A stretch of 48,939 bases of DNA, taken from Escherichia phage vB_EcoS_PHB17. Under the pieces are notes generated by a model. The model did no database searches. It had not been told where the DNA came from and was given only the letters and a program-made list of their open reading frames with translations. Positions 42,842 through 45,337 of the stretch are shown here, in pieces; position 1 is the first letter of the stretch, and every line of letters starts with the position of its first letter. A program made the position numbers and the translations under genes. The DNA is taken from the sequence record NC_054892.1, one strand, 5' to 3'.

Positions 42842-43224
42842 AACGATTAGCGGCAATCATGATGGTTATGGCTCTTTCCGGTTGTTCAGCGTCAAGCGCT
42901 CTGACTGGTTTGATTGGCAGTAAGCCGGAAGTAACAGCCCAAGCCGGAGCGGAAAACATAAAGCAAACCGTGGGCGTGACAGCAAAGCAGGACACCAGCA
43001 GCAAGCAGGAAACCAGCTTTGAAAAGTCTAACGTTGGAAAGGTTGACACCTCAAACAAAAAGAAGGTGAGCGCCTCCAGCATTCAAGCTGAAACAATCAC
43101 GGCGGAAAGGATAGAGATCAGGAATACAGATAGCGGGTTAGATTGGAAGGTTAGCGCGTTATTCTTTGCTGTAATTTCTATCGTGCTGTTTCTCATCGGA
43201 TACAAAAGCAAGAAAGGAGCCTAA
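42838..43224 (+). CDS. unimolecular spanin (128 aa)
   Basis: Lipobox ALSGC at N-terminus plus C-terminal transmembrane helix, the arrangement known from phage T1. Confidence 0.8.
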
Positions 43225-43238
43225 CGGCTCCTTTTTTA
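43213..43238. terminator. rho-independent terminator at end of lysis cassette
   Basis: AGGAGCC-TAAC-GGCTCCT plus T6; spanin stop codon sits in the loop. Confidence 0.7.
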
Positions 43239-43436
43239 TTCCTCCATCAATCTGACGTTAACCAAAACCACGCCGTCAACATCACATAGATTATGCTCTT
43301 TGTCTCCAAACGCTTTCATATCGGCACGCAGAACGGTTAACAGGGCATAAATCAAATCATCATGCGAGATTGAATTTACGGCGCAATGCTTCAATATCTT
43401 GTCGATTAGTTTTTGAGCAGAATAATTCTTCATCAC
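43236..43436 (-). CDS. hypothetical protein (66 aa)
   Basis: ORF overlapping 3' end of next ORF by 77 nt in another frame. Confidence 0.3.
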   Translation of the reverse strand: MMKNYSAQKLIDKILKHCAVNSISHDDLIYALLTVLRADMKAFGDKEHNLCDVDGVVLVNVRLMEE

Positions 43437-43752
43437 TTAGTTCATCCATATGAAACAGATCGTAAATGTATTTGTTTCTCTCACCTTCCAGGTTGTACAA
43501 CTCAAACCGGAAAGGGCGCTTGTGCGAGCCGTAGCACGTCACCACGCCTTTATCTAATCCAAGATAGCCCAACGTACACATTCGAGGAATAAACTCAAGA
43601 GAAACGCTTGAGGCGAATTTTCGAGGCGTCATATTGGCGGCTCTTGCGAGACGCTCACATTCCCTATGCTGAAACACAAACTTTGCTAAATGCTGGCGGT
43701 TAAACCAGCTATAACTTTCACAAAATTTATACAGATCTAAGAGGAACATCAT
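43360..43752 (-). CDS. hypothetical protein (130 aa)
   Basis: ORF whose ATG directly follows stop of upstream gene. Confidence 0.45.
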   Translation of the reverse strand: MMFLLDLYKFCESYSWFNRQHLAKFVFQHRECERLARAANMTPRKFASSVSLEFIPRMCTLGYLGLDKGVVTCYGSHKRPFRFELYNLEGERNKYIYDLFHMDELSDEELFCSKTNRQDIEALRRKFNLA

Positions 43753-43756
43753 TCAA

Positions 43757-45337
43757 TCACCCCAGCAATGATGGATTCACAAACACGCGCCCATTGATAA
43801 CGCAAACATAATTTCGTTCTTCCAGCATTGGGAGTAAGTTTTCCTCAATGCGTTTCATGATTCCGGCTTGCCCCAGGAACGGCTTAACCTTGCGTGCGCT
43901 TTCGTAAATTGCGCGAACCGTTAAGATCCCTTTGTTTGCTTTACCGTGGCGAGTGATGATATCAATCAGCTTTGACATTTCCGCATCGTCACCAGCGTGA
44001 CCGGAGGCATTCGCCGCGCTAATGTAAGTTTTGCTCAATTCCTGGAACATGATCAAAGCCTCTTGCATCGTTTCAACTTCAATTTCACGCGCCTTTTGTG
44101 GTGAACCGTTCTCATTGAACCAGTTACGGATTACATGCAGAACGGATGCAATGCGGATCACTTGCTTATCCATTTTACCCAGCGCACCGCGTAGCATCGT
44201 GTGTGAGTATTTTCCGCCGTCTGCTAAATCCGGCTCCATTTCCTGACGTGCGCGATTTAGGCAACGCATAGCCGCTTTGCTGATCTTCAATGAAACATCC
44301 ATTTCCGACATGATGTTATGAACAAGTTGGTAATATTGCGCTTTCAGTGTCGGATCAACAGGTTCAAACGTTGAATCACCTTCATCATCAATAAAGGTTC
44401 GACGGCCTAAAAATGATTCCTCGCGAACAAGTAAGAAACGCTCACTAACACCTATACCGCGTGAACCAGCCTCCATGATACCATTTATTGTTTCATCCTG
44501 AGCGATCACACTCATGCAACCAAGCGCCTTAAAACTCATGTTGTTTTCAGCGTTTGCACGCGCGATAGAAACGTGTCCAGCATCCCAGGCTTTAAGAACC
44601 AACTCACTGTTAGTTTTTCGCTCGCTGTTGGCGTAGGTCAAACCCAAAAGGCTGTTAATACTCGTTGCCTCATCCGAGATTACCGCAAAGTTTCCTTGAC
44701 GGTTGTTAATCTTTGCCAAACCTTCTGGCGTGGTATCAGACACCGGAAACACAACGTCGCACAGCTTTTGCAACTTCTCCTCTAACTCCTCTTTTTCTTC
44801 GTAAAGAGCGGCCATATCAGAACCGGATCGCTCGCTTTTCATTTCTTTAGCAAGGCCAGCCAGTTTAGCCAGAATCTTTTTGCGCTCTTTCTTGCGTTGT
44901 TCGTTGATTCGCTCAACTTCGCAAACCATCGGAGCAATCGCCAGACTATTGATCGCAGATTTACCAGTTGACGGCGGCTGGCTCGTTACAACGTAAAGCG
45001 CGGTTGGCTGGTCGGTTCCATGATAATCAACAGTAAAGCGTCCGAGCATTGCAGCAGAAATGCAGCCTACAAAGTGCATATAGGCAGACGAAACAGGGAA
45101 TTGCACAGAGTTTGCAATGTTGCGTGACAGCTTGCCAACAACATCAACGTCATTCCCCAAAGAGATCACAGGGTAGCGGTCATTGCCTGAGTTAACATCT
45201 TGAACATCGCTCCAGAAACTTGATGATTGGCGGTAGCCGTTTGCGTTGATTGCCACACGCAGAGGTGAAACGCCCAGGCTTTCAGCGGTATCAATAATGT
45301 CTTTCGGTGATAAGCGTTTTTGTTCAAAATCGTACAT
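43757..45337 (-). CDS. P-loop NTPase of unknown function (527 aa)
   Basis: Walker A QPPSTGKS and Walker B AVISDEAT; start MYDFEQ with AAAGGAG RBS. Confidence 0.6.
   Translation of the reverse strand: MYDFEQKRLSPKDIIDTAESLGVSPLRVAINANGYRQSSSFWSDVQDVNSGNDRYPVISLGNDVDVVGKLSRNIANSVQFPVSSAYMHFVGCISAAMLGRFTVDYHGTDQPTALYVVTSQPPSTGKSAINSLAIAPMVCEVERINEQRKKERKKILAKLAGLAKEMKSERSGSDMAALYEEKEELEEKLQKLCDVVFPVSDTTPEGLAKINNRQGNFAVISDEATSINSLLGLTYANSERKTNSELVLKAWDAGHVSIARANAENNMSFKALGCMSVIAQDETINGIMEAGSRGIGVSERFLLVREESFLGRRTFIDDEGDSTFEPVDPTLKAQYYQLVHNIMSEMDVSLKISKAAMRCLNRARQEMEPDLADGGKYSHTMLRGALGKMDKQVIRIASVLHVIRNWFNENGSPQKAREIEVETMQEALIMFQELSKTYISAANASGHAGDDAEMSKLIDIITRHGKANKGILTVRAIYESARKVKPFLGQAGIMKRIEENLLPMLEERNYVCVINGRVFVNPSLLG

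Follow-up and report, generated by a model that had tools for sequence, protein, structure and literature searches.

Two overlapping reading frames at the end of the helicase operon of Escherichia phage vB_EcoS_PHB17: a very probable dual-coding gene pair of T1-like phages

Same-strand phage genes overprinted out of frame are known from phiX174 (A*/B/K/E) and from the lambda Rz/Rz1 pair, and overlapping frames at a gene end are also a feature of programmed frameshift pairs such as the tail assembly chaperones G/GT and dnaX. The DNA considered here (hereafter the window) is the 48,939-nucleotide (nt) sequence of Escherichia phage vB_EcoS_PHB17 (NC_054892.1), a T1-like member of the Drexlerviridae, in which an earlier note had pointed out two open reading frames (ORFs) sharing 77 nt in different frames, leaving it undecided whether they resulted from a frameshift (programmed or due to sequencing error), from gene decay or from a nested small gene. 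The ORF listing confirms the overlap and places both frames, here called ORF1 and ORF2, on the minus strand, a detail missing from the note; all window features described below lie on this strand unless otherwise indicated. ORF1 (43752-43360, 130 amino acids (aa)) opens with an ATG. ORF2, in the +1 frame relative to ORF1, is listed with a GTG start (43436-43236, 66 aa) that is directly followed by an ATG (43433-43236, 65 aa, TAA stop included in the coordinates). The available data make it very probable that the pair is a genuine, family-wide dual-coding overlap of the last two genes of the helicase operon, with one mRNA serving both genes, ORF2 initiating at the internal ATG 43433 and both frames being under selection.

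The ORF1/ORF2 pair shares with the phiX174 and lambda cases the use of two frames on one strand, an internal start, the maintenance of both products and a reduced synonymous variation. It departs from them in that the 3' end of ORF1 lies over the 5' end of ORF2, neither gene being fully nested, and in the extent of the overlap, which is 74 nt here and 17-146 nt between clades. As in the short coupling overlaps of phage operons (ATGA, 1-22 nt), the two genes belong to the same strand and operon and the downstream start is found inside the upstream gene, but the ORF1/ORF2 overlap is 3 to 70 times longer. The impression that it is unusual for such a genome was borne out: neighbouring genes in this genome type use overlaps of 1-22 nt, as seen for all other same-strand overlaps in the annotated close relative PaulSarasin. 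ORF1 and ORF2 may be regulatorily coupled; given that the ORF1 stop is located 74 nt past the ORF2 start, termination-reinitiation would be an unlikely means of such coupling. Like G/GT and dnaX, the pair presents two overlapping frames at a gene end; unlike them, it carries no slippery heptamer or stimulatory structure, ORF2 has its own ATG after a stop codon, and viable relatives keep the two genes about 470 nt apart. The literature search returned nothing on this Drexlerviridae/T1-like gene pair, which we regard as a genuine, ancient dual-coding overlap, that is, a known kind of feature represented by a pair undescribed in the literature searched.

The conservation of the layout was studied in loci drawn from annotated phage records and from IMG/VR, where both proteins were placed by profile hidden Markov models on stop-to-stop translations; the counts refer to the 61 distinct loci carrying both genes (Tunavirinae, Tempevirinae and Webervirus). 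All 61 loci present two separate overlapping ORFs with conserved starts, ORF2 always being in the +1 frame of ORF1 and its ATG lying 313-325 nt past the ORF1 start. This ATG is invariably embedded in the ORF1 codons for S-D-(E/D)-E-L-F, of which D107, L110 and F111 are invariant, and is preceded at a distance of 2-6 codons by an in-frame stop (61/61). Every locus has 2-11 stops in the ORF2 frame across the ORF1 body and 3-11 stops in the third frame across the ORF2 span, and the overlap far exceeds chance expectation. In the window, the ORF1 codons S106-D107-E108-E109-L110-F111 (AGT GAT GAA GAA TTA TTC) occupy 43420-43437; the ORF2 ATG (43433-43431) is formed at the junction of GAT and GAA, and a TAA (43437-43439) placed directly 5' of the GTG-ATG shuts the ORF2 frame towards the ORF1 body. 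The junction hence reads CTA AGT GAT GAA GAA in the ORF1 frame and C TAA GTG ATG AAG in that of ORF2.

The length of the overlap varies between clades through shifts of the ORF1 stop, with the start of ORF2 staying in place. It amounts to 89 nt in T1, 77 nt in TLS and IME347 and 74 nt in Warwickvirus and Hanrivervirus, with 17, 35, 41 or 56-59 nt in others. The most extended case is that of the Webervirus KP36, in which ORF1 has 153 aa and the overlap 146 nt; the +1-frame ORF of this phage is a homologue of ORF2 (hhalign probability 98.5%, E 3e-15), so that open frames with homology among diverged relatives are seen for both genes in the 61 distinct loci plus KP36. The ORF1 tail, defined as the residues following the 1-111 core, has a clade-dependent length of 0 to 42 aa. 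In the window it comprises residues 112-130 (CSKTNRQDIEALRRKFNLA, 43363-43419), and such tails are found only in lineages that also carry ORF2; in two lineages without ORF2, ORF1 ends at residue 110-111, just past ELF, and the spanin gene comes at once. Both genes are widespread, with tblastn detecting ORF2 in 352 and ORF1 in 833 phage records, and both belong to full-length families: ORF1 matches PHROG 2794 (E 1.1e-53, residues 2-128 of a 129-position profile) and ORF2 matches PHROG 9539 (E 6.8e-23, residues 4-62 of a 64-position profile).

The relatives also indicate which start should define the overlap. A GTG precedes the ORF2 ATG in just 19 of the 61, whereas ATG 43433 has an aligned counterpart, to within one codon, in every relative and M1 is invariant in the ORF2 alignment. 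As the GTG is not conserved and the ATG is, the relevant overlap is 74 nt (43360-43433), encoding D107-A130 of ORF1 plus its stop and ORF2 from M1 to the first bases of codon 25; the 77 nt first reported (43360-43436) hold only if the non-conserved GTG is used. The purine-rich Shine-Dalgarno-like stretch that precedes the ATG is encoded by the ORF1 codons immediately upstream. Its predicted duplex with the anti-Shine-Dalgarno sequence has a family mean of -4.8 kcal/mol, compared with -2.8 for the in-gene background, which it surpasses in 50/61 loci. Moreover, the junction RNA is less structured than its shuffled versions (minimum free energy -10.2 kcal/mol, z = +1.05; 176/200 shuffles fold at least as well). 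These features suggest that the region 43437-43453 (TATGGATGAACTAAGTG), with its weak Shine-Dalgarno sequence, would act as the ORF2 ribosome-binding and initiation site.

According to the proposed model, a single operon mRNA would carry ORF1 and ORF2, with ORF1 being translated from its own ribosome-binding site, 4 nt past the helicase stop, down to its stop at 43360. ORF2 would initiate independently at ATG 43433, supplied by the Asp-Glu codons (GAT-GAA) of the ORF1 S-D-E-E-L-F segment and sitting in unstructured RNA after the purine-rich stretch. The 74 shared nt would thus be read twice, in frame 0 as the ORF1 tail and in the +1 frame as helix 1 of ORF2, both under selection at the protein level.

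Selection within the overlap was estimated by an OLGenie-like partition of changes according to whether they are nonsynonymous (N) or synonymous (S) in ORF1 (first letter) and in ORF2 (second letter). The estimates come from 17 distinct sequences of the clade with overlaps of 71-74 nt, pooled values being within-clade; such within-clade analyses were preferred to a family-wide analysis by codon position, which was blurred by unalignable tails. For the ORF2 frame, dNN/dNS was 0.49 (bootstrap 0.32-0.75), and 0.52 when pooled (0.40-0.68): the ORF2-frame protein is under purifying selection in the overlap. Synonymous divergence (pS) is also lower inside the overlap than outside it, at 0.35 against 0.59 for ORF1 and 0.42 against 0.69 for ORF2, and some BLAST hits (H87, H88) cover the overlap alone.

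Evidence on the ORF1 frame was provided by relatives in which the two genes have been naturally separated. In the Warwickviruses tonnikala and brachmannus and in the Hanriverviruses BEK12B and Fulano1, an HNH homing-endonuclease gene is found inside the overlap, directly after the ORF1 codons for N-R-Q (tonnikala, L094:1480-1953; brachmannus, L093:324-797, minus strand; BEK12B, L095:633-1019; Fulano1, L097:568-1041). The HNH gene leaves about 470 nt between the ORFs, its ATG overlaps the new ORF1 end by 14 nt, and the cassette occurs in about 10 phage records of these two genera. The phages bearing it hold the shared stretch twice, each copy having kept one frame only. The upstream copy retains that of ORF1: DLEALRRKFNIT has become QIKALRKRYGLE, of equal length, with 22 of 36 nt changed and synonymous swaps that include GCA to GCT, CTG to CTA and CGC to AGG, and the former ORF2 frame now contains two stops. 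The downstream copy retains the ORF2 frame, with LIDKILKFCAVSSISH turned into LIDEILKFCATSQISH by synonymous recoding (including AGT to TCT); the head of ORF2 is rebuilt behind a new ATG as MESK-LIDEILKFCATSQISH and the ORF1 frame is stopped. The BLOSUM62 score of the change from DLEALRRKFNIT to QIKALRKRYGLE is 24, against -4 +/- 7 for random changes, and an equal number of random changes reached the observed similarity in 0/20,000 trials in each of four comparisons (P < 5e-5). Since each de-overlapped copy retains its own peptide, protein-level selection acts on both peptides, among them an ORF1 tail of the window's type.

Several observations weigh against this interpretation. For the ORF1 tail, dNN/dSN was 0.78 (bootstrap 0.43-1.51) and 0.96 when pooled (0.65-1.41), with intervals that include 1. 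The selection statistics as a whole, those of ORF2 among them, are rough, since they rely on few SN sites, on p-distances and on pairs that are not independent. Where ORF1 stops differs widely from clade to clade, so that the tail may be a passenger in some lineages. vB_EcoS_PHB17 itself has a weak ORF2 Shine-Dalgarno sequence (-3.1 kcal/mol). The count of an ATG in every locus relates to the first ATG of each open segment, the invariance of M1 in the alignment being a separate support. Finally, the indications that both products are translated (the conserved ATG, the Shine-Dalgarno-like signal and the confidently predicted folds) are indirect.

Some of these points feed the alternative that fares best, namely that within the shared stretch ORF2 alone has a function and that the ORF1 tail past F111 is neutral read-through dictated by ORF2. 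Tails of 0-42 aa depending on where ORF1 happens to stop, the termination of ORF1 at residue 110-111 in the ORF2-less lineages, a dNN/dSN of 0.78-0.96 not significantly below 1 and the lower confidence of the modelled tail (predicted local distance difference test, pLDDT, of about 80) would all agree with it. The HNH-bearing relatives point in the opposite direction, as the tail freed from ORF2 keeps its exact length and the pattern A-L-R-(K/R)-(K/R)-(F/Y) despite changes in 21-22 of 36 nt, the synonymous CGC to AGG swap among them. In addition, the R-to-K replacements seen in the window's clade are conservative in ORF1, whereas in ORF2 they bring radical changes of V to R or K. A tail that is pure read-through is consequently considered unlikely in this clade, despite the non-significant dN/dS test.

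A second alternative maintains the two genes and moves the ORF2 start downstream to TTG 43394, which would reduce the overlap to about 35 nt. This is how RefSeq presents the gene in phage W011D (NC_054893; L001:1947-2102, 156 nt), and the weak Shine-Dalgarno sequence before the ATG in vB_EcoS_PHB17 would be in line with it. It is opposed by the lack of conservation of the TTG, relatives having ACG, ATT, ATG or GTC instead, and by the residues encoded 5' of it, where I10 is invariant and L9 and D11 are mostly conserved. Such a start would also remove most of helix 1 (residues 4-19) from a model with a pLDDT of 93, the alignment to PHROG 9539 already begins at residue 4, and the de-overlapped copies rebuild the L-I-D-x-I-L-K segment behind their new ATG. 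The TTG start thus appears very improbable.

Still less credible is programmed +1 (or -2) frameshifting in the overlap, which would yield an ORF1-ORF2 fusion protein. It could be invoked from the long overlap of two ORFs in different frames, from the weak ORF2 Shine-Dalgarno sequence and from the models, which show helical segments both where the ORF1 core finishes and where ORF2 begins, making a fusion sterically conceivable. Nevertheless, inspection of the alignments by eye revealed no conserved slippery or shifty motif (X XXY YYZ or a +1 shifty stop), the first 17 nt past the ATG, which are the sole stretch common to all clades, are variable, and the junction RNA, besides being less structured than shuffled controls, gave no Rfam match near the gathering score. 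The conserved ATG has a conserved in-frame stop just before it, the 181 ORF1 homologues (111-135 aa) and 39 ORF2 homologues (34-68 aa) include no fused orthologue, and the two-ORF layout is present in 61/61 loci. In the plaque-forming tonnikala, BEK12B and Fulano1 the HNH gene separates the two ORFs and the old ORF2 frame is stopped twice, and such separation in plaque-isolated phages implies that an ORF1-ORF2 fusion is not required. The IMG/VR locus L081, with a truncated ORF1 and an intact ORF2, likewise does not fit a fusion.

The last possibility, that one gene was split by an indel arising in sequencing or assembly, or by a frameshift mutation of recent date (pseudogene or decay), is practically negligible: out-of-frame overlapping ORFs are indeed the classic signature of an indel, but the same frames and lengths recur in more than 60 independently sequenced genomes, overlap lengths are identical within the window's clade with no indel relative to the closest relatives, no relative with one uninterrupted ORF was found, and both products match full-length families and are modelled confidently, with the ORF2 frame under purifying selection. 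Because the comparison with relatives that the earlier note had proposed returned two separate ORFs with conserved starts, the frameshift and decay alternatives fall, and among those it had listed only the genuine small gene survives, with the amendment that the gene is not nested and overlaps ORF1 by its own 5' end.

The de-overlapped phages raise a further question, which is why the HNH gene is found at this place. It may be that the dual-coded stretch, as the most nucleotide-conserved part of the locus, is the homing site of the HNH endonuclease, that the cassette brings along recoded, non-overlapping gene ends, and that the window represents the intact target. This proposal is tentative, the balance being close to even and leaning slightly against it; within it, being read in two frames would account for the greatest nucleotide conservation and, in turn, for the use of the stretch as homing site. 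The position equivalent to the insertion point (43398/43399, just past ORF1 codon Q118, deduced by aligning the N-R-Q codons) is uninterrupted in vB_EcoS_PHB17. The tonnikala ORF2, located downstream of the HNH gene, is Hanrivervirus-like (97-100% identical to HNH-less Hanriverviruses), which suggests, from sequence similarity, co-conversion during homing. If the homing-site proposal were true, a natural series would be available, made of overlaps from 0 to 146 nt and fully separated versions, that could be used to test what the overlap contributes (expression coupling versus genome compaction) and how an overprinted tail gains function.

Two other HNH-containing relatives were not counted as de-overlapped cases. 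Shigella phage 2019SD1 (L092, NC_049820.1 35700-37900) was set aside; it has duplicated HNH segments and a 349-aa ORF joining helicase-like, ORF1-like and antisense-HNH sequence, and its HNH region is probably a mis-assembly or a rearrangement. Klebsiella phage F13 is uninformative in this respect, its HNH gene being elsewhere, between the helicase gene and ORF1.

Regarding the encoded proteins, neither ORF1 nor ORF2 had significant matches in Pfam (sub-threshold BUD31 only), NCBIfam or the PDB sequences. The AlphaFold2 model of ORF1 (pLDDT 92.9) shows a winged-helix domain with flanking helices, in which a helix-turn-helix is followed by a beta-hairpin wing, and a tail with a helix at residues 120-126. 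ORF1 is accordingly predicted to be a winged-helix protein, and its modelled fold and gene position suggest that it could bind DNA and play a role at the replication module. It shares less than 15% identity with winged-helix proteins of the MarR/ArsR-like and E2F/DP types, from which it also differs by its extra N- and C-terminal helices and its basic tail. Across 47 homologues, H29 never varies and C11 and C32 are almost invariant (43657-43722 in the window), and these three residues of the N-terminal helices may form a metal-binding or redox site. The records of relatives label ORF1 as 'YdbL', 'gp70' or 'HTH domain-containing protein'; the first of these names found no support, as the Pfam scan gave no match to DUF1318, which we take to be the YdbL family, and NCBIfam gave none either.

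The ORF2 model (pLDDT 93.2) consists of two helices (residues 4-19 and 24-42) and a beta hairpin (strands 46-50 and 56-61), the first helix being encoded wholly within the overlap and having a pLDDT above 90. A fold search returned significant matches solely to the protein's own uncharacterised family. A relation to Cas2 was rejected, since it relied on a weak PADLOC match and is contradicted by the fold.

ORF1 and ORF2 are the final two genes of their operon. Upstream lies the DUF3987 helicase gene (43757-45337), whose stop is separated from the ORF1 start by 4 nt. Its longest ORF begins at TTG 45400, but the PHROG match comprises only residue 24 onwards and the orthologues have 1581 nt; the start is therefore placed, from sequence comparison, at what is probably ATG 45337 (MYDFEQKRL...). 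Right after the ORF2 stop (43236) there is an intrinsic terminator hairpin (43213-43234, AAAGGAGCC-GTTA-GGCTCCTTT), with T-runs on both strands, shared with the convergent spanin gene ending at 43224, the neighbour on that side being the holin/endolysin/u-spanin cassette. The hairpin is probably a bidirectional terminator, and both KP36 and T1 have a terminator annotated at the same place. Within the phage collection, the nearest records are those of the Changchunviruses W011D and PaulSarasin (about 87% nucleotide identity), in which ORF2 and the spanin gene are separated by an additional minus-strand gene of 228 nt (L001:1642-1869 and L002:1641-1868, respectively). This gene is missing in Salmonella phage PMBT35 and in the window (43225-43235), where ORF2 is followed directly by the shared terminator.

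Two further observations arose from the survey of relatives. In L081 (IMGVR_UViG_2974611450_000001), a premature stop cuts ORF1 to 57 aa with ORF2 intact at its usual position, which reflects either a sequencing error or the persistence of ORF2 without a full-length ORF1. About 20 phage-collection records (MG0656xx) named 'Campylobacter phage' (A118, C4, A112a, A134, A16a and others) match the locus at Hanrivervirus-level identity, with up to 97-98% in the 3' part of ORF2; these 'Campylobacter jejuni phage' records look like mislabelled or contaminant Drexlerviridae genomes.

The most immediate consequence of these results is that what had been suspected to be an error or a frameshift in the vB_EcoS_PHB17 genome turns into a real gene pair. 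They also call for a correction of annotations, as ORF2 is missing from the records of T1 (L020:883-1083), TLS (L023:901-1098), KP36 (L090:1020-1223), orkinos (L004:905-1099), egaa (L005:878-1072) and tiwna (L007:905-1099), apparently because long overlaps are penalised by gene callers, and is truncated at its N-terminus in RefSeq W011D. In the ORF1/ORF2 pair, a well-controlled natural example of dual coding becomes available, with an overlap that varies between clades and with frames which, once separated by an HNH gene, show that each of them encodes a selected protein. Both genes adjoin the DUF3987 helicase gene, and ORF1 at least spans the Drexlerviridae, a family often employed in phage therapy and in studies of defence systems.
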